Part shown: positions 16,352-60,353 of the stretch, one piece after another
Layout of the letters: each line of letters begins with the position of its first letter
Numbering within the stretch: position 1 is the first letter of the stretch
Origin: Longimicrobiales bacterium
GTDB taxonomy: Bacteria; Gemmatimonadota; Gemmatimonadetes; Longimicrobiales; Gaopeijiaceae
Assembly: GCA_963422615.1 (NCBI GenBank)
Contig: OY730414.1
Span: 1,178,001-1,242,000, forward strand
Direction: 5' to 3'
DNA length: 64,000 bases
The notes under the pieces: model-generated
What the model was told of the DNA's origin: nothing
What the model saw: the letters and a program-made list of their open reading frames with translations, nothing else
Database searches by the model: none
Translations under genes and position numbers: made by a program

Positions 16352-16504
16352 TCATCCGGCGGGTGATTCACCCTGCCTAAAGGACGCCCTCCGGCCCAGC
16401 ACCCGCGCAGCGACGCCCGCCCCCAGCGCATGGAGGTCCGGCCGCACCCGAGCCGCCAGCGCGCCGAAGACGGTTTGGTTTGACGGCGACGTGATCAGGA
16501 TGTG
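16352..16504 (-). other. alternative target-recognition cassette 5 of the Type ISP enzyme
   Basis: HILITSPSNQTVFGALAARVRPDLHALGAGVAARVLGR...*; in frame if tract 2 is C19 or C22. Confidence 0.85.
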
Positions 16505-16620
16505 CCCCTGCGGCGGGGCAGGGCGCGGCCCAACTGACCCAAGCCGATCAGGTCTGGCATGTGCGGGGTCGCCAGGCAAGCCGGCACGGTCCGACTGAAG
16601 GGGGAGGCGATCAGGATCGC
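16495..16620 (-). other. alternative target-recognition cassette 4
   Basis: AILIASPFSRTVPACLATPHMPDLIGLGQLGRALPRRRGTS*; in frame if tract 2 is C18 or C21. Confidence 0.85.
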
Positions 16621-16721
16621 GGGATGGCTCGGGTCTGGCGCCCGGTCGCGCAGAGGTCGAAGAGGGTGTCCGTCGCCAGGGTGGCGAAGGGGAGCTGCTG
16701 GGTCTGGTTGACGAGGATGGC
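16611..16721 (-). other. target-recognition cassette 3 (in frame as assembled)
   Basis: AILVNQTQQLPFATLATDTLFDLCATGRQTRAIPRS*; reached with C13 plus C20. Confidence 0.85.
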
Positions 16722-19700
16722 TTCTCTCCGTCTCCCTTTGCCCCAAGCCCTTCCGAGGACGCGCGATTTTCTGGGGGGGGGGGGGGGGGGGGAATGCGGG
16801 GCACCTACGTCAGAAGCCGGGGCAGCGCCCGCGTCTGTTGCGAGCCCTTGATCGCGGCCAGATCCGGCATCTTTGCGGTCGCCAGGGCCTGAAAGATCAT
16901 GTTGCTGGTCCCCGTGATCAGGATCGCCGGGGGGCCGCTCTTCCGGCTGGGTCCAGGGCGTGGAGGTCCGGGAGCTGTGCGGTGGGGAGGCACGCGAAGA
17001 CGGTTCGGTTGGAGGGGGATGCGATGAGAAGCCCGACGTTCGTCCGCCCCGGGCTGGAGGCGGTGTTGTTGGATTTTCTGGGGGGGGGGGGGCGATCCCG
17101 GAGGCCTTTGCAAACATGCGGGAAATCGTCTTCACCGAGGACAAGATCCGAGCGTCTTCATAGAGCCAGAGCTTGGTGAAGGGACGGTAGAGCACTTCTC
17201 GGATTTTCGCCTCGTCGAACGCCAGGGGCTGCTTTCGCTTCAACGAAGATTTGAGCACCCCGGTCCACTTGATCACGTCGATTCGGGTGTTCTGGGTCAG
17301 GCTGTCCAGGGCAGCTTTGTCGAAGCCCGTTCCCCGCCACTCCGCCAAAGTCCGGTTGAATTCGTCAATCAATGCGGAGACCTTCTTGCACAGGGCGTCG
17401 CGCGAAAACGAATACACGTATGCGTCGCAGGCGGTTGTCAAGCCGATCGCGTGCCTCCGCACAGCGGCGGGGGTGTCTTCTTTCTTGGGTCGGGCCAAGG
17501 GCAGGAGCTCGAAAAACGTCTCGTCCCCCAGATTCATCCAGTCGTGTCTCTGATTGACCGGCACGACCTTGAAGTGATCGGACAAGACATCGCCCAGCTG
17601 CGCGAGCCATTGGAACTTCTGTTCCCGCGTGTACCGCTCCGGCACTTCGGCGTAGTGAAGGGTGGCGGGAGCGGCAAGTTTCCGATCCGGGTTGCGAACG
17701 AGGACCGTGATCTGCACCCCGTTTCGAGTGGCCACACCAAAGATCGGGTCACCTTCCTTCCTCCGCTCCTCCCCCGACTTGTAGGCGTTGCCGCGCAGGT
17801 TCACGACGTAGATGTCGGTAAATTCGTCCCGCACGGCGGCGCGCATGCCGGTCAGGGACGGCGCGTCTGCGAAGCTGTTGGGCGTCACCAGCGCGACGAC
17901 GGCAGGCCCGTCCTTGACCTCGGCTGGCATGTCGACTCGGTCCGATGCCCAGCGGCACGCCTTGACGTAGAGATTGCCGGCGGCCTTGCCCAAGCCTTGG
18001 CCCTTGACCTTTTTGTTCCAGAATCCGTAGGTGTCGGCAACTCGCGCGGAAAGGTCCGGATATTCCCTATTCGGGTTGTCGTCCGACGCGCGTTTTTGTC
18101 CGGCCGACCAGGGCGGATTGCCAACGACTACCCAAATCGGCTTGCGGTTCTGCTCTTCTTGCCGTTCATAGTTCTCGTCGATTCCTTCAAAGAATTCAAA
18201 CTGTCGCCGGGCTGAATGCTCGGTCATCAGGAAGGTGTCGGTGAGAAGGATGCGGTTGAACGGTTCGTACGGGACCATTCCCGCACGGCCCTTTGCACGA
18301 TCCTTGCTTTGAAGCCGATCGTAGCGGGCTTCTTCGATCGTAAGCGCGGCAATGTAGTAGGCCAGCAGCACGATCTCGTTGGCCCAGATCTCGTGCCGGT
18401 ACTTGCGCTCCAGGTCTTCGTCCCGGATCAGGTATTCGCCCTTTGCATCCCTGGCGGTCAGGAGCCGGTTCACAAAGGTGCCCGTTCCCACAAAGGGGTC
18501 CAGGATCGTCACCCCCTCATCGGTGAGCCCCCTGCCGAACTGATCCTTGCAGACGGCGTTCACGGACCGCAACATGAAGTCCACCAGCGGGATAGGGGTG
18601 TACGCGATCCCCAGGGACTTGACCTCATTTTTCATGGCGGCCGCGAAGAAGCCGTCGTAGATCTCCCGCAGGATGTCCAGCTTTTCGCTTCCGCTGACCG
18701 CGCCGTCGAAGGCTCGCTCCATGGTTCGGTAGGCCCGATTCAAGGGGCGCAGGTCTTCGTCGAAGGCGACCCCCTCCTTGGCAAAATCCGCCAGAAGCCG
18801 GTCAATGCTTCGGGAGATCGGGTTCCGGCGGGCGAACTCCGATTCCGCGAACATCACCCGAAAGACCGGGATCGTCACGACATGCTGGGCCACCATCTGG
18901 ATGGTGGTTTCGTCTGTGACCGCCGGGTCCACGGAATCACGCAGGGAGCCGGCGAAGGCGTGCAACGCGGTCTGGGCCGCCGGGCTGGAGGCGACGAGGT
19001 GATCAATCTTCCGCCGCACGGTCTTGCAGATGCTGGCGGCCTTCTGGCCCCAGCGGGGATACATGTGCTTGTCTCCGACCGAGTCCACGACCATCGAGGC
19101 AAACTGGTCGTTGAGTGCCAGCGCCAGCTCGGTCTGAACTGCGTCGCTGATGCTCCGGGAGCCGCCGTTGTTTCCTGAAAGCCGGGTGCTGAGCCTAAAC
19201 GGAGACTTCTTTTGGACGGCTCTGGGGTTGTTCAACCAGTAGTCGATCCGATCGTCGTGGCTCCGAAGCGCACGGGCAACTTGCCACACCGGAGAGAAGT
19301 CTCCCTCCTTGAGGATCGTGCGGGCCCGCTCGTCGACTTCGCCTTCTCCGAAATCCGGAACGACGACGGGGATGACGATGTAGCCCTTTATCTTCCCCTC
19401 GGCCTTGCGCATCGCCCGCCCCACCGCCTGGGTGATGTCGATCTCGGACCTGCGGGGCTCGAGAAAGACGACGGCGTCCAGGGCCGGCACGTCCACGCCC
19501 TCGCTGAGCACCTGGGCGTTGGTCAGCACGCGGCAGGTCGTGGGGGTCGGGCTTTCGTGGGGGCGGTAGGGGATCGCAGCGTGTTCCCGGAGCAGGTGTA
19601 GCTGGCGGGCGCGCTCATGCGCGGGTGTGCCGCCGTCGATGTGGCTGACATCGAGGACGAGGAAGCCCTTCCGCTCCCCAGCGGGGTGTTTCAAGGTCAT

Positions 19701-21257
19701 GGCCGAACCGATCTTGTCCCAATGTTCGGCGACGAGCTTGGACTTCTTCACGGTGTTGCAGAAGGCGATCGCCGAGCGGGCCGGAACCTTCCCCTGTGCA
19801 GTGTCGATCTTCCCGGCTGGGCGGGTTCCCACCTTGGCGACAGAGTGGGGCGTGGCGAGGGCGTCCCAGCAGCCGGCCAGCTTTACGGCCGAGTCCAACG
19901 ACACGTCGGAATCGGCGCGGGCCGCCTTGGTGCCCACCACGGACTGCTGGTAGGCGGCTTCCGACGCCACGATCACCAGCACCTCATAGTCCGAAAGACA
20001 GTTGGCATCCAGCGCTTCGGCGAAGCTCATCCTGAAGAACTCGGGGCCGTATTTTGCCTCATCGTCCATCGAATAGCTGTCGCCGTCGAAGCCTTCCGAT
20101 TCCAGCTTCTTCTTCAGGCGTTTCGTGAAGACGCGGGGCGTGGCCGTCATGAAGAGGCGTTTTGCCGCGGGCAGATAATCGTCCCGGTGAACGAGCAGGA
20201 AGGGTGACACGCCCTCGTAGCCCTTCACCTTGCTCCGGTCGGGGACGCCGGTGGTGCGGTGGGCCTCATCACAGATCACCAAGTCGAAGCGGAAGCCGGG
20301 CAGTGCCTCCAGGGCCGTGGCGATCTTGGACGTCGACTGATACGTGGAAAAGACCACCCGCATGGCGCCGCCGGGTACGGGTTGGGCAAGCTCCTTGGCA
20401 AGCCGGTCCGGGTCGGTCGTCACCGGCATCGCGAGTTCGGTCAAGTTGCCCACGGTACCGGAAGCTTCGCCCGTCTTGCGGGCCGTCGTGCTGTCGGAGC
20501 ACACGCCCAGGTAGCGAAGATCAAGCGTCCGCTGCCTAGACCATTCCCGCATGGTCTGGCCCATCAGGGCAATCGATGGCACCAGGTACAGGACCGTGCT
20601 GCCCAAGCCCGCCTCCTGCTCGGCCGCCCGGAGGGCCACGAACGACTTCCCGGTTCCACAGGGGAGGATCAGCTTCCCCCTGTCGGAGCTCGTGAAGCCG
20701 GCCTGGATCTTCTCCAGCGCCTGCCGCTGATGGGCCCAGGGGGTATGCTTGGGCAGATCGACCGGGTCCACCAGCCTTGCCGCGTCGAAGGAAGGCCGCC
20801 AGTCGTCGACCCAGTCGTCCATCTCCGCCGTGTGCAGCACATGGCAGCGGGGGTCCGCCTTTTCCAGCTTCTGATAGCCGATTTTGGGGATGTCCCTGCT
20901 CGTGATCAGCATTCGGGCCTTGAAGTCCGCCCCATCCGAGTCCGCGAGAAAGCTGTCGATCTCGGACGTCTTGGTTTTGCTCTTGCCGTATTTGCACTGG
21001 ATCGCGCAGAAGCCGCCTCCCCAGGCCACGCGTTGACGGGCCACCAAGTCGATGCCCGTGTCCTGTCGCGAATATCCACGCGCCTCCCGGTCCGGCCAGT
21101 TCTGCCAGAGCCAGACGTCCTCGAACCGGTCCCGCCCGTATTCGCCCGGGTGGGACTTCAGGGCGTCCCGCACCACAAACTCGAAGCGCTTGCCCGCCAG
21201 GGCGTGCGAAGGGTCATCGTGACGGAGCGATCGAATCGCTTCGGCGATATGGGCCAT
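16611..21257 (-). CDS. Type ISP restriction-modification enzyme (Mrr-like nuclease, SF2 helicase, m6A MTase, N-part of TRD) with variable C-terminus
   Basis: DTGIDLVA..AIQCK; LPCGTGKS; CDEAH; MTATPR; QAVGRAMRK; DPFVGTGTF; GNPPW; LYRPFTK. ATG 21257 overlaps the upstream TGA. Confidence 0.93.
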   Translation of the reverse strand: MAHIAEAIRSLRHDDPSHALAGKRFEFVVRDALKSHPGEYGRDRFEDVWLWQNWPDREARGYSRQDTGIDLVARQRVAWGGGFCAIQCKYGKSKTKTSEIDSFLADSDGADFKARMLITSRDIPKIGYQKLEKADPRCHVLHTAEMDDWVDDWRPSFDAARLVDPVDLPKHTPWAHQRQALEKIQAGFTSSDRGKLILPCGTGKSFVALRAAEQEAGLGSTVLYLVPSIALMGQTMREWSRQRTLDLRYLGVCSDSTTARKTGEASGTVGNLTELAMPVTTDPDRLAKELAQPVPGGAMRVVFSTYQSTSKIATALEALPGFRFDLVICDEAHRTTGVPDRSKVKGYEGVSPFLLVHRDDYLPAAKRLFMTATPRVFTKRLKKKLESEGFDGDSYSMDDEAKYGPEFFRMSFAEALDANCLSDYEVLVIVASEAAYQQSVVGTKAARADSDVSLDSAVKLAGCWDALATPHSVAKVGTRPAGKIDTAQGKVPARSAIAFCNTVKKSKLVAEHWDKIGSAMTLKHPAGERKGFLVLDVSHIDGGTPAHERARQLHLLREHAAIPYRPHESPTPTTCRVLTNAQVLSEGVDVPALDAVVFLEPRRSEIDITQAVGRAMRKAEGKIKGYIVIPVVVPDFGEGEVDERARTILKEGDFSPVWQVARALRSHDDRIDYWLNNPRAVQKKSPFRLSTRLSGNNGGSRSISDAVQTELALALNDQFASMVVDSVGDKHMYPRWGQKAASICKTVRRKIDHLVASSPAAQTALHAFAGSLRDSVDPAVTDETTIQMVAQHVVTIPVFRVMFAESEFARRNPISRSIDRLLADFAKEGVAFDEDLRPLNRAYRTMERAFDGAVSGSEKLDILREIYDGFFAAAMKNEVKSLGIAYTPIPLVDFMLRSVNAVCKDQFGRGLTDEGVTILDPFVGTGTFVNRLLTARDAKGEYLIRDEDLERKYRHEIWANEIVLLAYYIAALTIEEARYDRLQSKDRAKGRAGMVPYEPFNRILLTDTFLMTEHSARRQFEFFEGIDENYERQEEQNRKPIWVVVGNPPWSAGQKRASDDNPNREYPDLSARVADTYGFWNKKVKGQGLGKAAGNLYVKACRWASDRVDMPAEVKDGPAVVALVTPNSFADAPSLTGMRAAVRDEFTDIYVVNLRGNAYKSGEERRKEGDPIFGVATRNGVQITVLVRNPDRKLAAPATLHYAEVPERYTREQKFQWLAQLGDVLSDHFKVVPVNQRHDWMNLGDETFFELLPLARPKKEDTPAAVRRHAIGLTTACDAYVYSFSRDALCKKVSALIDEFNRTLAEWRGTGFDKAALDSLTQNTRIDVIKWTGVLKSSLKRKQPLAFDEAKIREVLYRPFTKLWLYEDARILSSVKTISRMFAKASGIAPPPPENPTTPPPARGGRTSGFSSHPPPTEPSSRASPPHSSRTSTPWTQPEERPPGDPDHGDQQHDLSGPGDRKDAGSGRDQGLATDAGAAPASDVGAPHSPPPPPPRKSRVLGRAWGKGRRREAILVNQTQQLPFATLATDTLFDLCATGRQTRAIPRS
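16773..16792 (-). repeat. homopolymer C20 on the coding strand (tract 2)
   Basis: G20 on the + strand; followed on the coding strand by AGAAAATC. Confidence 0.95.
16805..16927 (-). other. alternative target-recognition cassette 2
   Basis: AILITGTSNMIFQALATAKMPDLAAIKGSQQTRALPRLLT*; in frame if tract 1 is C12 or C15. Confidence 0.85.
16918..17040 (-). other. alternative target-recognition cassette 1
   Basis: Manually translated: NVGLLIASPSNRTVFACLPTAQLPDLHALDPAGRAAPRRS*; in frame if tract 1 is C14 or C11. Confidence 0.85.
17080..17092 (-). repeat. homopolymer C13 on the coding strand (tract 1)
   Basis: G13 on the + strand; followed on the coding strand by AGAAAATC. Confidence 0.95.
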
Positions 21258-22216
21258 CAGGCTTGCTCCCGGGCCCCCGATGCGGGTGTTTCGCTGGGGT
21301 CGAGCCCTCGGGGGAGCCGGGTGTCGTCCTGCACTCCGGTGCCCTGGCTTGGTGCCCCACCGGAGGCCCAAGCGGACGCGTCGGCGGGCATGGCCAACCG
21401 CCCTTCCAGGGAAGGCGGCAACGACCGAATGATCTCGTCGGAACGGATGCCGACGTGGATGAGCCGCCGAAGATGGCGGATCAGCTGATAGGAGTCCTCC
21501 GCCCAGACGTGCCACTGGTTGGGGTCGTCCGGAACCGGCCAATCGGCCTTGCGGCGCAGGCTGTCTACCGCCCATTCAAGCGGCGACCGCCCGGATACCT
21601 TATACGCGAGTGCCTCCGGTGGGATGCCCTCCAACCGGCAACCATCGTTGACTTCCAGAACCGCCGTTCCGGTCTCTTCGTTTCGCCGGAGGCGCATGCG
21701 GGAACCGGTGATGCGATACGCATCGCCCGGGGTATCCCCCGCATCGGCCACCCCCGAACCGCGTTCCCCGCTGTTTGAATCGCATTCCCCGCTGTTTGCG
21801 CCGCGTTCTCCGCCTTCGATTTCCGCGAAGAGGGAGGTTTCAGCTAGCGCTCCCCCCCCCCCTGAATTCCGGGAGGCCGGGTCCACAAAACGAACCCGCA
21901 CGTCGGCCTCGGGACAGCTTTCGTAACCGGTGTGCAAATCCATCAATTCGCGCCCGGCGGTCCGGAAAGCTTCAAAGTCTGCGGCAAACGGGATTCTGGG
22001 AAGATTGCGCTGAAGATCGTGCTTATACGTTTCACGCCAGTCGGGGGCGTGCATCACCCCGTAAAAGTACTCCCAGATGTCGTCCTTCGTGATCCCATCG
22101 TCACCGTAGGCCCTCCGAAACTGGTTCAAACACCAGTCGGTGACGTTGTCCAGATCCCCTTCTCCTGGGATTGCCGGCTCGAACATCCCCCCTTGGCTCG
22201 GGGTTGGCATCGGCAA
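21257..22216 (-). CDS. stand-alone C-terminal part of the Type ISP specificity domain
   Basis: DNVTDWCLNQFR..ITKDDIWEYFYGVMHAPDWRETY..DL..NLPRIP..F..AGRELMDLH..YE, GIPPEALAYKVSGRSPLEW and DDPN are the normal extreme C-terminus of LlaBIII-like enzymes. Confidence 0.88.
   Translation of the reverse strand: MPMPTPSQGGMFEPAIPGEGDLDNVTDWCLNQFRRAYGDDGITKDDIWEYFYGVMHAPDWRETYKHDLQRNLPRIPFAADFEAFRTAGRELMDLHTGYESCPEADVRVRFVDPASRNSGGGGALAETSLFAEIEGGERGANSGECDSNSGERGSGVADAGDTPGDAYRITGSRMRLRRNEETGTAVLEVNDGCRLEGIPPEALAYKVSGRSPLEWAVDSLRRKADWPVPDDPNQWHVWAEDSYQLIRHLRRLIHVGIRSDEIIRSLPPSLEGRLAMPADASAWASGGAPSQGTGVQDDTRLPRGLDPSETPASGAREQA
21852..21862 (-). repeat. homopolymer G11 on the coding strand of the ISP C-terminal subunit gene
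   Basis: C11 on the + strand; encodes SGGGG in frame. Confidence 0.9.
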
Positions 22217-41855: not shown

Positions 41856-43682
41856 ATGCGCAGGTCGGTCCACCCGGTCGCCGTCTGTATCGTTCTGGTC
41901 GGGTTGTCCCTCTCTTGGGCGGCGGTTCCCTCTGCCGGGGACGCTCAGCTTGTCCGGGGCCGGCTCGTGGAAGCCGAAGAGGAAGTCGGCGTCGGCGGGG
42001 CCATGATCACGCTGGTCAGCCGGGAGGGCCGCGCTATCGAACGGGTCCTCACCCGAAGCGGTAGCGGCCTCTTCCAGCTGAAGGCGTCCGGGCCGGGGGA
42101 GTACCGCCTCCGGGCCGATAGAATCGGCTACGCCACCACCTACTCCGACTACTTCCGCATCGCTGGCGGGGACACGCTGGGGGTCGAGATGGCGGCCCGG
42201 GTGGAGGCGGTGTCGCTGGAGGGCATCGAGGCCGAGGGGAACCGGCGGTGCCGGGTGCGGCCCGAAGAAGGCTTGGCCGTGTATCGGGTCTGGGAGGAGG
42301 CCCGGAAGGCCCTGATCGCCGCGGCCTGGACCCAGGAACGCGGCATGTATCACTACGAGATGCTGCGGATCAAGCGGAATTTGGACCGGGAAGGCCGCAG
42401 GATCGAGTCCGAGGACCGAAGCTACGGACAAGGGTACAGCGAAGCGCCGTACGTTGCGCGGCCCGCCGACTCCTTGGCGGTCAGCGGATTTGCTCGATTT
42501 ACCGAAAGCGAATCGGTCTTCTGGGCGCCCGACGCCGGGGTTCTCCTTTCCGACGCATTCCTGGACACCCACTGCTTCAGGGTCGAGGCCGGCGGGTCGG
42601 AAGCCCCGGGGCGGGTCGGCCTGGCGTTCGAGCCCCTGTCGGAGCGAACCGTTCCCGAGATCAGCGGGACCCTCTGGGTCGACCCCGTCACGGCGCGGCT
42701 GAGTTGGCTGGAGTACCGGTACGTAAACCTGAACATTCCCCGGTCCCTCTTGGCGGCGTCCCCCCGCGGTCGAGTCGAATTCCAGGAGCTGCCCAACGGT
42801 ACGTGGATCGTGACCTCGTGGAGCATTCGGATGCCCCGGCCCGGGGTGGTCAGCCACTTCCGGTCCGGTCGGCGGGTTCCGGTTCCCACGCTGGACGGCA
42901 TCGCTGTGGCGAGAGGCGAAGTATTGCGGGTTCACGGGAGTGAAGGAGTCGTCTTCGAGGGTGATCCGGGAAAGCGGATCATCGGAACCGTCTTCGATAC
43001 GCTCCGGATCGGACTCCCGGGGGCCCGGGTGTTTGTCGAGGGCACGGGAACGGAGGTCGTGACCGATTCGGCGGGTCACTTCGAGCTCACCCATCTTCGG
43101 TCCGGCGTCTATACGCTCTACTTCACGCATCCCTATCTCGATCCCCTGTTGTTCCTGCCCGAGCCGATCGAAGCCAAGGTTGAAGAAGGAAAAGACCCCC
43201 TGCGGGTGGATTTCTTCGCGCCCACGCTGGAGCGGGTCATCGATGAGGTTTGCGACGGCGACCGCCAGCCCGAGGCCCCCTTGATTGTGGCTGAAGACGA
43301 GCGACTGGCTTGGCCCCGGGGTATCCTCACGGGGCGGGTGACGGACCCGGACGGAAATCCCGTCAGCGAAGCAACCGTTGTCTTCCTCTCCAGAACGTAC
43401 GAAATCGAGGCCTATGTGGATGCCACGGCCAAAGGAGCGGGTCGGCTTCGGGAGGGGCGTCGGGGCGCCGTGGCGAAGACCGGCGGGTCGGGGGTCTATC
43501 GCATATGCTGGGTACCGGTCGGCGCGCCACTGGAGGTTGCGGTCCTGAAAGAGGGGGAAGCCCTCAATCCCTCAAGCGTGGATGCGTCGTACGATCTGTC
43601 GGACTTCTTCCCGGGGAGAGTGCGGACCCTGACCGTCGTCCCCCAATCCCCCTTTGCTACCCTGAACCTGCGGACCCGATGA
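41856..43682 (+). CDS. secreted carboxypeptidase regulatory-like domain protein
   Basis: Signal peptide; three repeats of the G.V.D..G.P...A.V....T...G.F.L...G.Y pattern; LLSDAFLDTHCF. Confidence 0.8.
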   Translation: MRRSVHPVAVCIVLVGLSLSWAAVPSAGDAQLVRGRLVEAEEEVGVGGAMITLVSREGRAIERVLTRSGSGLFQLKASGPGEYRLRADRIGYATTYSDYFRIAGGDTLGVEMAARVEAVSLEGIEAEGNRRCRVRPEEGLAVYRVWEEARKALIAAAWTQERGMYHYEMLRIKRNLDREGRRIESEDRSYGQGYSEAPYVARPADSLAVSGFARFTESESVFWAPDAGVLLSDAFLDTHCFRVEAGGSEAPGRVGLAFEPLSERTVPEISGTLWVDPVTARLSWLEYRYVNLNIPRSLLAASPRGRVEFQELPNGTWIVTSWSIRMPRPGVVSHFRSGRRVPVPTLDGIAVARGEVLRVHGSEGVVFEGDPGKRIIGTVFDTLRIGLPGARVFVEGTGTEVVTDSAGHFELTHLRSGVYTLYFTHPYLDPLLFLPEPIEAKVEEGKDPLRVDFFAPTLERVIDEVCDGDRQPEAPLIVAEDERLAWPRGILTGRVTDPDGNPVSEATVVFLSRTYEIEAYVDATAKGAGRLREGRRGAVAKTGGSGVYRICWVPVGAPLEVAVLKEGEALNPSSVDASYDLSDFFPGRVRTLTVVPQSPFATLNLRTR

Positions 43683-44452
43683 GGAGCCACCGCGCCCGGG
43701 CGGGAGAACGGGAGGGGAACTGGCAAGTCTTTGCGGACTTGGGTCTGGCGCTTGTCTTGGTGCTCTTCGCCGTCGTGGCGTACCAGTTCGTGCGCAACCG
43801 CGATTTCTGGCTGCGGGAGAAGATCGTCTTCAGTCAGGAACGGGTCGATTCCATCATCCGGGAGCACTTGGCCGACACTTCACGGTACAGGGTTTGTCCT
43901 CCGGACGGGGACAGGCAGGCGATTGTTTTCGGGGCCGACGCCACCTTCGAGATCGGAGACTGGCGGCTCAAGAGAGAAGGAGCGGAGCTCTTCCAGCGTT
44001 TGGGCGCCGTGTTGGCGGAAGTCGACACCGTACTGGGCCAAATCGATGTGGAAGGCCACACGGACTCGGTTCGCATCAACCGGGTCGGCGTACGGTCGAA
44101 CTGGCAACTTTCCACCCTGCGGGCGCTGGCCGTCACAGACTCCCTTCGGACCCGCCCCACCCTGGATTCCCGGAAACTGGCCGTGGTGGGTCGGGGCCGG
44201 TGGAGGGAAGCCATGTCCAACCAGACCGAAGAGGGTCGGGCCGCGAACCGGCGAATCGAAATCTCTCTGGTCTATTCCCCCGAAGTGCTGGGTCCCGTAG
44301 GCATGGAGAGCCTGGGGGCCCTCTTCGACACCATCGGAAACCGGGTCCGCCGTCGCATCGACGTGCTCCCCCAGCCTTCCAGCGCGCTGCAAACAAGGCC
44401 CTTTTTCCGCCCTCGCTGCCGGGGCGAAGCCAGACTTCCGGTAGTCCGATAG
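43679..44452 (+). CDS. OmpA/MotB-family protein (ZorB/MotB-like)
   Basis: WQVFADL plus a single TM helix with the conserved Asp; VEGHTD, NWQLSTLRALAV, NRRIEI; ATGA overlap with the previous gene. Confidence 0.88.
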   Translation: MRSHRARAGEREGNWQVFADLGLALVLVLFAVVAYQFVRNRDFWLREKIVFSQERVDSIIREHLADTSRYRVCPPDGDRQAIVFGADATFEIGDWRLKREGAELFQRLGAVLAEVDTVLGQIDVEGHTDSVRINRVGVRSNWQLSTLRALAVTDSLRTRPTLDSRKLAVVGRGRWREAMSNQTEEGRAANRRIEISLVYSPEVLGPVGMESLGALFDTIGNRVRRRIDVLPQPSSALQTRPFFRPRCRGEARLPVVR

Positions 44453-44838: not shown

Positions 44839-47725
44839 ATGCCACAACCTCGTCAGATTCATGCCGTTGCATTGCTGACGGCAATCCTGGCCACACCCGC
44901 CCAGGCGCAAGAGCGCGCCACGGTGGGGGGTACGGTCATCGACGCAGCAACGATGGCCCCGCTGGAAGGCGTTCAAGTTGCCATTGAGGGGACAAACTTC
45001 GGCTCGCTTTCCAATTCGGCGGGCCGTTTCGTCATCCTCAACGTTCCCCCGGGCACCCACACGTTGCGCGCCGTATTCATCGGGTATGGTCCTGTCGCAC
45101 AGGACTTCACGGTGGAGCCCGGCGGCACCGCTGTGATCGACTTCAACCTGGCTCAATCGGTGCTCCAGCTGGATGAAATCGTCGTTACCGCGACGGGGGA
45201 GCAGCGCAAGCGGGAGCTCGGCAATGCGGTCGGCGAAATCCGCGCCACCGAAGTCGTAGAGATCGCGCCGATCAACAACCTCGCCGACCTGATTCAGGGC
45301 CGTCAGGCGGGGGTCCAGGTCTTCAACTCGGCGGGCACTTCGGGGGCCGGTTCCCGCATTCGCGTCCGCGGATCCAGCTCGATCTCCCTGTCCAACGATC
45401 CCATCCTGGTCGTGGACGGGATCCGGGTCGACAGCCGCCAGAGCGGTCTCGGAGCGGGAGGCCAGGAGGCTTCCAGGCTGGACGACTTCAACCCCGAAGA
45501 CATCGAGTCCATCGAAATCGTGAAGGGACCGTCGGCCGCCGCACTCTACGGTACCGAGGCGGCCAACGGCGTAATCCGGATCACGACCAAGCGGGGTCAG
45601 CCCGGGGAGACGCGCTGGAACGTCTGGGCCGAGGCAGGACTCATTCAGGAGCCCAACACCTACCCTTTGGGCTACTTGGGACTGGACGCGAACAGTGACA
45701 CCTACGCCACGGCGTGCCGCCTCAACGAGGTCGCCCAGGGGCTCTGTGCCCAAACCGGTGTCGAGTCCTATCAGGTCCTCCACGATCCTGATCTGTCCCC
45801 GATCGATGACGGAAGCCGGAACCAGATGGGGATCTCGGTCTCTGGCGGAAGCGAAGCCGTCAGCTACTACGTCTCGGGAGAGATTGAGGGCGAAGTCGGA
45901 CCCTACTCCCTGCCGACCCCCGACCGGGAGCCTGTCGTACCTCGACAGCCACTTCGCGTACATGGGGAACGACAACAACTCCTTCGGCATGCTTCCGAGC
46001 GCCTTCTTCGGCACCTCGGCTAGGCCGTGGTCCTTCCAGAAGCCGGCCCAGCTCTTCGGGCGGACATTCTACCAGGACACGCAGCGCTTCACCGGCTCGG
46101 GCACGGTCACGTGGGATCCGATGGACTGGCTTTCCTTTCGGGCAACGGGGGGATTGGACTACTACAATCGCCAAGACGTGTCGTTCTTTGCCCGAGACAT
46201 CGGCGTCCCCGGCACGAGCAACCTGGGCCGCAAGGACACCGACTTCCGCAACTCCTGGCAGTACACGCTGGATGGCAGCACGACCGCATCCTTCGATCTG
46301 ACCGACGGGATCACGTCCCGGTCAACCGTCGGCGTTCAATACTTCGAAAACCAGTTCGCGGGCACCAACGCGTGGGGCATCGACATCGTGAACGGGGCCT
46401 CATCGATCGGCGTTGCCGCGGAGACGTTCTCCGGCGAGGTCCACATCTTCGAAAAGACCGCCGGCCTTTTTGTCGACCAGCAGTTCGGGATCAATGACCG
46501 GCTCTTCCTGACCGGGGCGATCCGGGCGGATGACAACAGTGCGTTCGGTCAGGACTTCGACCTGATCTACTATCCGAAGGCGGGGCTGTCGTGGATTGCT
46601 TCCGAAGAGTCCTTCTTTCCGCAGATCTCCTTCCTGGACCAGCTGCGCATACGGGCCGCGTGGGGGCGCTCCGGGTTGCAGCCCGGGTCGGACGACGCGA
46701 TCCGGACGCTGAGCGCCAATGCGATCACCACACCGGACGACCAGACCGGTTCGGGCGTGTCGATCGGCAATATCGGCAATAGCCTGCTCGAGCCCGAAAA
46801 GTCGAGCGAGATCGAAGCGGGTCTCGACGCCGAGTTCTTCAGCGGCCGGGCCGCGCTGGAGCTGACCTATTACGACAAACGCACCGACGGCGCCCTGATC
46901 ACCGTGCCTCTGGCGCCTTCGTTGGGCGCGAGCGCCACCCGCTGGGTCAATATCGGCGAGGTCCAGAACGCCGGGTGGGAAGCGGCGATCACCGGAACCT
47001 TTGTTGAAACCAACACGGTGAGCTGGGAGATCGGTCTGTCGGGCTCAATCAACAACAACGAACTGCTGTCGCTGGGCGAAGGAACGGAGCCCATCGGCAC
47101 CCAGACCCGCTTTGTGCCGGGCTTTCCGCTGGGAGGACAGTGGGACCGCCCGATCGTGGGCCACAACGATGCCGATGGCAACGGCATCATCACGCCGGAC
47201 GAGCTGACGATCGGAGACACCATCGAGTACATCGGCCCGGGCATGCCCGAGAACCAGCTCTCGATCTCATCGAGCCTGCGACTTCCGGGCGGAATCCGGG
47301 TCACCGGGCTTCTGGACTACCGGGGCGACTACATCGCATACAACAACACGGAACGCTTCCGTTGCCGCTTCCGGGTTTGCCAGGCTCTGATCGATCCGGA
47401 GACGCCCCTTGCGGAGCAGGCGCGGGCCGTCGCATCGCTCCTTCATCCGAGCCAGACCGTGTGGGGCTACATGGAACCGGGAGATTTCTGGAAGCTCCGC
47501 GAGGTCTCGGCGCGCTTGGACCTGCCGGAGCGCTTCGCAAACAGTTTCCGAGCTTCGAGGGCGTCGGTCACGATCACGGGGCGCAACCTGGCCACGTGGA
47601 CGGACTACTCGGGGATGGATCCGGAAATCAACTCGAACGGTTCGGGGGACAACTTCGGCATCTCGGAGTTTCTGACCCAACCGCCGGTCCGATTCTACAC
47701 GGTCCGCTTCAACTTCAGCTTCTAG
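44839..47725 (+). pseudogene. SusC/RagA-like TonB-dependent receptor, frameshifted near 45925
   Basis: The N-part has plug motifs (IESIEIVKGPSAAALYG.EAANGVI.ITTKRG). The barrel part (..NDNN..R.DDNSAFG..PEKS.E.E..FNFSF*) is in a different frame. Confidence 0.85.
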
Positions 47726-59177: not shown

Positions 59178-60353
59178 TTAACCGGGTTCGCTTGTGGGTA
59201 GGGACTGCCAATGCGCATCCATGGCCTCGTCCGAGAGCTTGGCCGGGTTCACCCTGAAGACACCCCTGCCGCTCCCGGTCACCGCCCCTACATGCTCCAG
59301 CCAATTCAGACAGGTGCGGACTTGGTAGTGTGGAGGCGCGGCATCGCCGTCCCTGACCCGTTCAAGGATCTCGGCCCACTTGAATTGATTCTCTTGCGAC
59401 CTGAGGTTTCTCATTGTCCGGGCAATACGCCAAAGCACGCTCTGCGGAATACGTCGGATGTACTTACGCCCCGTCTTTTCTGACCAGCGGGCCACATGGA
59501 GTTTGTCGCCGTCCTTCCAGAATCGGGGGGGGGGGGGGGGCAACGGGCCCGCATCGCCTCCGCCTGGTTTCTCTTTCCTAGGTGAGGTGGCGGAATCACC
59601 AGAAACAGTGCCGGCCGCTACTTCTCCCGATTCGTCCCGTTCCCTTTCCAAGGCCGATTGCAACCGATCATTGATCCGGTCATCAATAAATTCTTGGAAT
59701 GCATGCTTGGTCAGATTCGTAAACTTCTCTATACGGACCTTGGTCTTGGGGCCACCATGCACCTGATCCACGATAAACCGAACAAAGTCTGGATTCGGAC
59801 GTTTGAGCGTATCAGTGAGTACCCACTTTATCGCTGCCGTGTATTTTAGGTTCTCGGCGGATCTGATAGAATCTTCAGAATCGAAAGATTCTTTTGTAAA
59901 GCGTTTGAGATTCTGGGCATCATCTTTGGTAATCGTTGACAAGTCGAATTCAAAGAATGGTTTCTCATCCATCCTGTTTGGTTCTTCAAGGTCCGCGAAA
60001 AAGCGATAGATCATACCATCGGTCAGGATACCGAACCGGGAGGAGGAACTCGAAAAATACCGAAAGAGCTGGGTAACGCTGCTGAGGTCGAGCTTAGATC
60101 CGAATGCCTTGCACTCAACGAGAATGATGGGGCGATTTTCCTTGAGAACCGCGTAATCCACCTTCTCACCGCGTTTTATCCCTACATCGGCGACATACTC
60201 AGGTACAACCTCCAGCGGATCAAACACATCGTATCCCAGTGCTTGCAAGAACGGCATCACAAGAGCTGTCTTCGTCGCTTCTTCGGTACGTGTATGTGGC
60301 ACGCGTGCACGGGCGCTGCTTGATAGTACCTTGAGCCGATCGATGAAATCCAT
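59178..60353 (-). CDS. HsdR-N-like (PD-(D/E)XK) endonuclease protein with an appended uncharacterised C-terminal domain
   Basis: TEEATKTALVMPFLQALGYDVFDPLEVVPEY..GEKVDYA..LVECK..QLFRYF..ILTDG; visibly AT-richer DNA. Confidence 0.88.
   Translation of the reverse strand: MDFIDRLKVLSSSARARVPHTRTEEATKTALVMPFLQALGYDVFDPLEVVPEYVADVGIKRGEKVDYAVLKENRPIILVECKAFGSKLDLSSVTQLFRYFSSSSSRFGILTDGMIYRFFADLEEPNRMDEKPFFEFDLSTITKDDAQNLKRFTKESFDSEDSIRSAENLKYTAAIKWVLTDTLKRPNPDFVRFIVDQVHGGPKTKVRIEKFTNLTKHAFQEFIDDRINDRLQSALERERDESGEVAAGTVSGDSATSPRKEKPGGGDAGPLPPPPPRFWKDGDKLHVARWSEKTGRKYIRRIPQSVLWRIARTMRNLRSQENQFKWAEILERVRDGDAAPPHYQVRTCLNWLEHVGAVTGSGRGVFRVNPAKLSDEAMDAHWQSLPTSEPG
59525..59540 (-). repeat. homopolymer C16 on the coding strand at a domain junction
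   Basis: G16 on the + strand; encodes PPPPP immediately before RFWKDG. Confidence 0.93.

Follow-up and report, generated by a model that had tools for sequence, protein, structure and literature searches.

We describe a Type ISP restriction-modification (R-M) gene whose end exists in five versions, encoded in overlapping reading frames and chosen by the lengths of two cytosine tracts. The gene lies on the minus strand of a 64,000-nucleotide (nt) stretch of the genome of a Longimicrobiales bacterium (GenBank assembly GCA_963422615.1, contig OY730414.1, positions 1,178,001 to 1,242,000), hereafter the window, in which all coordinates refer to the + strand. A long constant body is followed by a C13 tract (tract 1), a C20 tract (tract 2) and five related segments of about 40 amino acids (tails c1 to c5), each of which corresponds to a DNA-reading part of the target recognition domain (TRD) found in LlaGI and LlaBIII, both Type ISP enzymes. 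The last part of the TRD is encoded by a separate upstream gene, here called TRD-C. Cells carrying this locus can probably change the target sequence of the enzyme without recombination. The evidence for this reading comes from the anatomy and frame logic of the locus, the homology of the tails, their conservation across a clade under purifying selection, and tract lengths that differ between samples.

The frame table was obtained by rebuilding the end of the gene in silico, using a script to change the tract lengths. At tract 1, one added nucleotide (C14) leads into c1, one lost nucleotide (C12), or equally C15, leads into c2, and the unchanged length reads through to tract 2, which is used only when tract 1 stands in this read-through frame. 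From there, C13 with C20 gives c3, C13 with C21 or C18 gives c4, and C13 with C19 or C22 gives c5; c3 is the tail produced in the assembled state (C13 + C20). All nine frame combinations (9/9) finish in a tail, and none (0/9) is OFF in the window. The five overlapping-frame tails and the tract-length table had been proposed in an earlier note on this DNA, written from the letters and their open reading frames (ORFs). Both were reproduced exactly by the scripted changes, and the linkers from tract 1 to c1-c5 (about 15, 50, 119, 152 and 191 amino acids) are close to those given there (about 13, 51, 120, 153 and 192).

Open frames of this kind are unlikely to be a product of chance. When the two segments between the tracts were put through 20000 mononucleotide shuffles, equally long open frames arose in 6 cases, and off-frame stops within the gene body have densities of 0.030 and 0.015 per codon. 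Across the 2.57-Mb genome, a hidden Markov model (HMM) of the tails found only these five sites at E <= 1e-10, together with one weak match (E 0.067).

Five tails and the Type ISP enzyme body

Three-frame translation places LYRPFTKLWLYEDARILSSVKTISRMF before tract 1, with the seven residues AKASGIA between the two; it likewise shows LYRPFTKLWLYEDARILSSVKTISRMFAKASGIA before tract 1 and the five related segments downstream. The tails are 36-50 amino acids long, lie in direct, not inverted, orientation, and have a mean column identity of 54% in protein and 58% in DNA alignments. A stop codon directly follows every tail (TGA in four cases, TAG for c2), and successive tails interlock. The TGA that ends c1 sits within the first codons of c2, GCGATCCTGATC; more generally c2, c4 and c5 open with GCGATCCTGATC or CACATCCTGATC, whose internal TGA is the stop of the preceding tail. 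Because the TGA of one tail falls within the ATCCTGATC (A-I-L-I) that opens the following one, neighbouring tails are always one frame apart, and the unit spacings of 107, 101 and 116 nt are each 2 mod 3.

In the TRD core of LlaGI, a beta-hairpin (residues 1347-1358) lends stability to the core and is packed against Loop VI (1365-1374), in which H1368, G1372 and Q1373 read target position +3, according to the available text of PMC4872093. HMMER aligned c3 (NQTQQLPFATLATDTLFDLCATGRQTRAIPR) to positions 1185-1215 of the LlaGI chain (GQGDKADFATLISEYLSDMHVIGGQARNLPR). A chain offset of +164 puts the H, G and Q of ...DMHVIGGQ... at LlaGI 1368, 1372 and 1373, and this offset is verified because these are the +3-reading residues named in that text. 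The flanking parts are collinear with LlaGI: the body ends at about residue 1331 (ILSSVKTI being Loop V, 1324-1331) and TRD-C begins at about 1392. In addition, a relative with a fused TRD (G005) carries ...VTGKGGRSGFSALMMDSLPNLHTVDTGQCFPLYLY... 34 amino acids past YRPF, which matches the tail HMM at E 1.9e-4 (Z=1). The homology of the tails to the TRD rests on this alignment, the G005 match and the collinearity of body and TRD-C, from which each tail is the equivalent of LlaGI ~1345-1379, comprising the TRD core's beta-hairpin together with Loop VI, which reads bases. The note had described DNA-recognition cassettes matching the variable TRD stretch that follows LYRPF. That placement is borne out by the LlaGI alignment, the loop numbering and the G005 match, but the cassettes are not complete recognition units, as it is the constant body, and not the tails, that contains the jaw helix and Loops IV and V. 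At the residue that follows P-D-L, equivalent to LlaGI H1368 and LlaBIII N1360, tails c1 to c5 carry H, A, C, I and H, respectively.

By domain content and homology, the host gene is assigned to Type ISP (LlaGI/LlaBIII), as the note had held. Pfam detects an Mrr-family nuclease (PF13156 Mrr_cat_2, E 4.8e-20), the ATPase domains ResIII (E 1.5e-17) and Helicase_C (E 1.5e-8), and ISP_coupler (E 1.5e-21). The D...(Q/E)xK nuclease motif is present, with GIDLVA...AIQCKY aligned to GVDLVA...AIQAKF of LlaBIII. Pfam N6_Mtase reaches 20.3 bits, just under its cut-off of 20.4, and a gamma-class N6-adenine methyltransferase is indicated by an unbroken alignment to LlaGI/LlaBIII with DPFVGTGTF and NPPW; the catalytic motifs GTGKS, DEAH, NPPW and D...QCK can all be read in the translation. 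Matches to LlaGI and LlaBIII have E ~2e-185, and the alignment stops at residue 1312 of the 1578 of LlaBIII. Likewise, Pfam Type_ISP_C (PF18135) is found in the large ORF at profile positions 6-101 of 342. The constant body, which includes Loop IV, the jaw and Loop V of the TRD, ends in ...SRMFAKASGIA. In one respect the locus departs from Type ISP, whose prototypes are single polypeptides: its TRD is divided over two genes. The listed ORF (16611..21575) comprises 1654 amino acids, and the probable start is the ATG at 21257 (MAHIAEA...), where homologues begin. The enzyme frame is open for 106 codons above this start (21258-21575, minus strand), overlapping the end of TRD-C, so that the 1654-residue ORF overstates the protein by about 106 amino acids. 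Coordinates are collected in Table 1.

Table 1. Features of the split Type ISP locus, with window coordinates on the + strand.
Feature	Position	Strand	Description
Tail c5 + stop	16352..16504	(-)	coding 16355-16504; atypical; 50 aa, longer loop; tail-HMM score 53
Tail c4 + stop	16495..16620	(-)	coding 16498-16620; atypical; loop IGLGQLGRALPR; tail-HMM score 41
Tail c3 + stop	16611..16721	(-)	coding 16614-16721; class NQTQQLPF ... FDLCATGRQTRA.PR
Tract 2	16773..16792	(-)	+ strand G20 = C20 on gene strand; second three-way switch
Tail c2 + stop	16805..16927	(-)	coding 16808-16927; class GTSNMxFQ ... PDLAAIKGSQQTRA.PR
Tail c1 + stop	16918..17034	(-)	coding 16921-17034; class SPSNRTxF ... PDLHALDPAGRA.PR
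Tract 1	17080..17092	(-)	+ strand G13 = C13 on gene strand; first three-way switch
Constant body	17093..21257	(-)	Mrr nuclease, superfamily 2 (SF2) ATPase, coupler, N6-adenine methyltransferase, first TRD part
TRD-C gene (317 aa)	21257..22210	(-)	last core helices + guide of TRD, stand-alone protein
G11 tract in TRD-C	21852..21862	(-)	G on gene strand; predicted ON/OFF switch

Related loci, selection and tract-length variation

A collection of species-representative genomes contained 168 stretches that encode a relative of TRD-C, and the best 79 loci were examined. Tail regions downstream of YRPF...MF (74 from these 79 loci, plus the window) were scanned with an HMM for which 100 tails served as seed. 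The nested layout, of which the note knew no other case, is conserved in a large clade, being carried by these 74 further regions, and, in answer to the search of relatives that it had called for, homologous tracts differ in length between them (e.g., C13 versus C11 in L029 and L042). Record titles of the loci include Acidimicrobiia, Candidatus Poriferisodalis, Poriferisocius, Spongiisociaceae, Thermoanaerobaculia, Thermodesulfobacteriota and others, and these names point to sponge associates as hosts.

The 75 regions hold 371 tails, with 3-7 per region save in three regions (overall range 1-7), and no tail (0/371) is fused to TRD-C. A stop lies 0-2 residues past the end of the model in 283 of 374 tail-HMM matches, the frame step is -1 between 208 of the 218 directly adjacent tail pairs, and 125 G or C tracts of 9-22 nt occur within the regions. 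Tail classes shared across genomes include those of c1 (SPSNRTxF...HALDPAG), c2 (GTSNMxFQ...AAIKGSQQT) and c3 (NQTQQLPF...CATGRQT); further conserved classes are SNRxRPA...HVIDPAG, MKDPQLPF...HTAGRPT, GPSNMAxFG...HxMGPGQQT and NNRxIFG...CATGTNQPS. Loci mix different classes and are not built from copies of one class. Identity to tails elsewhere is 69-76% for c1 (L047, L053, L082, L015, L022), 82-89% for c2 (L032, L024, L016, L065, L052) and 83-89% for c3 (L030, L019, L008, L063, L013); the nearest relatives of c4 are 49-55% identical and those of c5, which lacks the terminal P-R, 49-61%. Of the five alternative cassettes, c1-c3 have class relatives elsewhere at 69-89%; c4 (at most 55%) and c5 (at most 61%) are atypical. 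The residue at the H1368 position could be parsed in 316 of the 371 tails (H 124, C 61, A 51, N 24, S 16, L 14, K 13, and others), and most loci have 3-5 different residues there among their tails.

Reachability was assessed by enumerating length changes of -1, 0 and +1 at every tract of at least 8 nt in the 75 regions. The assembled state finishes in a tail in 69/75 regions, 252/371 tails are reachable, and 1291 of 1633 tract-length combinations are productive. Six loci with three tracts each (L008, L015, L021, L047, L079 and L082) reach 7/7 tails and are productive in 27/27 combinations. Other loci, among them L011, L018, L023, L026, L062 and L081, have no tract of at least 8 nt and carry three tails in successive frames with one reachable; such loci may be locked in one variant, or tracts below this length may serve them. 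At L028, L063, L064, L030 and L067, whole units (enzyme, tails, TRD-C, next enzyme) were noted in tandem arrays, each unit with its own tracts and tails. Very long tracts were also seen, for example G27 in L067 and C26 plus C27 in L070.

Between loci, seven tail classes have ratios of nonsynonymous to synonymous differences (pN/pS) of 0.31-0.43 when read in their own frame, against 0.92-2.23 for the two shifted frames. Since protein similarity was used to find the tails, pN/pS is biased downward. In the assembled state only 69 of the 371 tails are in frame, and pN/pS is 0.37 for silent pairs (n=2086), 0.38 for mixed pairs (n=899) and 0.36 for expressed pairs (n=84). What is informative in this comparison is that silent tails are as constrained as expressed ones.

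The window was further compared with contigs from three other sequencing runs under the same organism label (X2, X3 and X5); a run with partial coverage (X6, organism B) was left out. Tract 1 is one longer in the X3 contig (14, depth 57; predicts c1), one shorter in the X5 contig (12, depth 95; predicts c2) and two longer in the X2 contig (15, depth 3.9; predicts c2), with 0 other letters different in each over the stretch compared; these are short-read contigs, which are error-prone at long homopolymers, and one has a depth of 3.9. At tract 2 the run contigs show a break or 3-4 gaps, and the comparison covers tract 1. Near-identical tail pairs suited to a comparison of tract lengths are scarce among the related loci because the collection holds one genome per species.

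The genome as a whole (2.57 Mb, 64% G+C) has 16 G or C tracts of at least 10 nt, ten of them 13-21 nt long, with a bimodal length distribution; we regard these long tracts as its contingency-locus repertoire. Seven of the 16 lie at 1.153-1.264 Mb, around the window, and positions in the genome include 30288, 195635, 1173122, 1263940, 1658011 and 2361882. One of them, G16 at window positions 59525-59540, lies inside a 391-residue ORF (59178..60353, minus strand) that matches Pfam HSDR_N (E 4.1e-13) and HSDR_N_2 (E 6e-9). HSDR_N is the N-terminal nuclease-like part of the R subunit of Type I restriction enzymes, and this ORF is a candidate for a second phase-variable defence gene of the window. 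Another, C17 (44612-44628), lies between an OmpA-family ORF (43310..44452, + strand) and a TonB-dependent-receptor-like ORF with CarbopepD_reg_2 and Plug domains (44839..46023, + strand), and may be a promoter or 5'-end switch of this outer-membrane receptor.

TRD-C, a separate second part of the recognition domain

A search of the organism's own genome with PF18135 recovered profile positions 165-336 of 342 (E 3.5e-40) at window positions 21491-22159, on the same strand as the enzyme. The match lies inside ORF 21257..22216, directly upstream of the enzyme gene. The note had placed the tails at the end of the enzyme, but TRD positions 165-336 are in the upstream gene with its own G11 tract. 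TRD-C has GAGGA six bases ahead of its ATG (22210), and its stop overlaps the start codon of the enzyme as TGATG. The protein aligns to LlaGI chain positions 1228-1294 and 1321-1401 (E 2.3e-18), corresponding to residues 1392-1458 and 1485-1565, which by the subdomain borders in the available text of PMC4872093 are the last core helices and the guide of the TRD.

With G11, the TRD-C product has 317 amino acids; with G12 it has 123 and with G10 121, stopping 3-4 codons past the tract. Tracts of at least 9 nt at or in the gene occur in 16 of 80 TRD-C copies elsewhere. The G11 tract itself lies within an insertion of ~45 amino acids (SGGGGALAETSLFAEIEGGERGANSGECDSNSGERGSGVA; window 21700-21870, minus strand) that is missing from most TRD-C homologues, and the Thermoanaerobaculia loci L007 and L020 have tracts of C19 and C16 at the corresponding point of the gene.

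There are at least 542 stand-alone homologues of TRD-C (174-555 amino acids); among the 120 listed, most have 220-260 amino acids, identity is 45-56%, and all carry PF18135. In the 40 other related genomes compared as close relatives, a TRD-C match was found in one, there within a fused enzyme. At the 79 loci, TRD-C is placed upstream in 25, downstream of the tail region in 32, on both sides in 3 (tandem arrays), divergently in 9, and unclassified in 10. This variation in placement argues that TRD-C acts in trans, and TRD-C would assemble with the large subunit in this manner. A complex prediction run without controls, in which the TRD-N part (large-subunit residues 1330-1492) and TRD-C were combined with the c3 peptide as partner, scored 0.00 against a mark of 0.32, a score that we count neither for nor against assembly. 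Two other explanations of TRD-C were considered, namely that an enzyme gene once lay upstream and was lost except for TRD-C as its 3' end, or that tail and TRD-C are joined in a circular or tandem form. Both are rejected as necessary assumptions; TRD-C has its own Shine-Dalgarno sequence and ATG, its placement varies, and it is never fused to a tail.

Proposed mechanism, alternatives and known systems

We propose that the locus encodes a two-gene, split Type ISP R-M enzyme in which homopolymer slippage sets target specificity. More specifically, nuclease, motor and methyltransferase would all reside on the large subunit, as would the initial two thirds of the TRD core, and one of the five tails would complete this subunit by adding the hairpin and Loop VI. 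The upstream, translationally coupled TRD-C would supply the last core helices and the guide in trans. Slipped-strand mispairing at C13 would shift the frame, two frames leading straight into c1 or c2 and the third passing both out of frame to C20, where three frames would lead to c3, c4 and c5, so that a complete enzyme would result from every frame state. Separately, G11 would turn TRD-C ON or OFF. Since the tails differ at the H1368 equivalent and in the loop that follows it, the choice of tail would change the base read at about position +3. We assign a probability of roughly 0.6 to this whole chain. Within it, switching at the DNA level would be reversible within a lineage, and each tail would confer a different methylation and restriction motif, giving five specificities. 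The tracts have two properties of simple-repeat contingency loci: C13, C20 and G11 are homopolymers in frame whose length sets the frame, and tract 1 reads 12, 14 and 15 in otherwise identical contigs, with the short-read caveat given above. Even odds seem appropriate for a broader formulation, a heritable, recombinase-free ternary decision tree in which n tracts pick among 2n+1 overlapping-frame copies of Loop VI with no dead frame, yielding 5 specificities here and up to 7 elsewhere, with the TRD-C tract as ON/OFF control, spread over several bacterial phyla that, going by their record titles, are sponge symbionts.

Several observations weigh against this proposal. The alignment of c3 to LlaGI is weak by itself (domain score 1.2 bits), and the five tails alone, at 36-50 amino acids, matched 0 Pfam families at E <= 1; an alignment of the cassettes to the Type ISP C-terminal domain, which the note had suggested, was obtained with LlaGI for c3 and with Pfam for none of the five. 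Tails c3-c5 need an out-of-frame linker of 119-191 amino acids, rich in P, R, G and S, inside a folded domain. Among the related regions, 119/371 tails are unreachable through tracts of at least 8 nt, and 342/1633 combinations and 6/75 assembled states have no tail; these unreachable tails and unproductive states come in part from loci without long tracts. Because c4 and c5 are without close class relatives and c5 is without P-R, five functional states are an upper bound, and three to five is the honest range. Moreover, a restriction-proficient enzyme that changes its specificity is expected to attack its own unmodified genome. The downward bias of pN/pS and the short-read origin of the tract-1 differences count on the same side.

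The difficulty of self-restriction would not arise if the choice were made at the RNA level, which we consider unlikely though the best of the alternatives. RNA polymerase or the ribosome would slip on C13 and C20, all tails would be present in each cell as a multi-specific pool, and all target motifs would be methylated together. As a matter of general knowledge, tracts of 13 and 20 nt exceed the length of the RNA:DNA hybrid, which makes transcription slippage plausible; a complete product from every frame suits a constitutive mixture, and equal constraint on silent and expressed tails fits either model. On the other hand, consensus lengths of tract 1 that differ between samples at depths of 57 and 95 indicate change in the DNA, homologous tract lengths vary between related loci, and the bimodal long G/C tracts of the genome are typical of DNA contingency loci. 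Slippage at the RNA and DNA levels is compatible and not mutually exclusive.

A second alternative is that the tails are equivalent spares which buffer the gene against frameshifts, so that slippage never inactivates the enzyme and its specificity stays unchanged. The window, with no OFF state, and the six loci at which every combination is productive would both be expected from such buffering. However, the tracts themselves are conserved, though selection could simply remove them, the discrete tail classes found across genomes differ exactly at the H1368 position and in Loop VI, and loci combine different classes instead of repeating one. We find buffering improbable, more so than a choice at the RNA level. 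It is very hard to credit a broken gene, in which tandem 3' fragments decay after loss of the TRD and frames stay open through high G+C (65% in the window, where long chance ORFs are common), despite the degenerate look of c5 and the Pfam match confined to TRD profile positions 6-101 in the large ORF: the remaining TRD is intact and adjacent, the shuffles rarely gave equally open frames, the tails are under purifying selection in their own frames, the catalytic motifs are present in the translation, and the layout recurs in 74 other tail regions from several phyla. A recombinase-driven shufflon was rejected, as a recombinase is absent nearby and the tails are direct, not inverted. No recombinase adjoins the locus, whose neighbours are an amidohydrolase and a BNR/sortilin-like gene, in line with the recombinase-free switch that the note had envisaged.

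The proposed split, slippage-controlled enzyme can be placed among known R-M systems, each described here as in the available parts of its source. It shares with LlaGI and LlaBIII (PDB 5FFJ, 4XQK; PMC4872093) the domain order of Mrr nuclease, SF2 ATPase, coupler, gamma N6-adenine methyltransferase and TRD, and its tails match their TRD-core hairpin and Loop VI and its TRD-C their last core helices and guide. Whereas those enzymes are single polypeptides with one fixed TRD and a single Loop VI segment, here the TRD is split after the ...LPR strand into two genes and the segment exists in five frameshift-selected copies. The closest published mechanism is that of the Helicobacter pylori Type IIG genes JHP1272 (Hpy99XIV) and HP1353-HP1354 (HpyAXVI) (Krebes et al., 2014; PMC3936762), where, as here, two homopolymer tracts lie in one R-M gene, the switch is recombinase-free, and a frameshift at the second tract alters the C-terminal recognition part and hence the recognition sequence. 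There, tract 1 acts ON/OFF and tract 2 adds or removes a C-terminal domain, giving two specificities (PMC3936762). In contrast, each tract here chooses three ways among versions of one structural element in overlapping frames, with no OFF frame and 5 states (up to 7 elsewhere); the family is Type ISP and not MmeI-like, and what remains of the TRD is made as a protein of its own.

Phase-variable Type I hsdS and Type III mod genes (PMC7394358, PMC7383803, PMC5909438) likewise undergo stochastic, heritable changes of specificity or expression through simple repeats. As far as these sources describe them, multiple specificities in Type I need recombination of hsdS copies, usually with a recombinase, unlike here, and the repeat tracts of Type I and III act ON/OFF or change TRD spacing and never choose cassettes by frame. 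The BcgI-like Type IIB system HP1471/HP1472 (PMC3936762) is, as here, an R-M fusion that needs a separately encoded recognition subunit, and the H. pylori S gene of this kind has a poly-G ON/OFF tract resembling G11 in TRD-C. The BcgI-like S subunit holds the whole recognition function, whereas TRD-C would hold the non-reading part (guide and helices), with all reading loops staying on the large subunit. The note had asked for a literature check of the nested five-way design. Subscription journals and supplements aside, the literature, including the available part of the review PMC12707154, yielded no description of that design, no phase-variable or split Type ISP enzyme, and no frameshift selection among multiple cassettes. 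Within that scope we found described nowhere the overlapping-frame versions of one reading loop, the read-through nesting, the lack of an OFF frame or the natural split of a TRD.

Published repeat-driven R-M switches are, to our knowledge, ON/OFF or choose between two specificities, and multi-state switching needed recombination of cassettes; if true, no richer example of a specificity switch driven by simple repeats than the system described here would be known. The locus also shows a compact coding trick: each tail's stop is embedded in the conserved opening of the tail after it, which puts tandem tails into successive frames and makes every frameshift productive. Gene callers name the related loci fragments or hypothetical proteins, and the defence repertoire is therefore probably under-counted. 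For the Type ISP family, the constant scaffold with at least 7 conserved Loop VI classes amounts to a natural experiment on target recognition. The natural division of the TRD, with the reading part on one side and the guide part on the other, marks where the domain can be cut, and the library of Loop VI classes could extend the partial recognition code given in the available text of PMC4872093 and aid the engineering of specificity.

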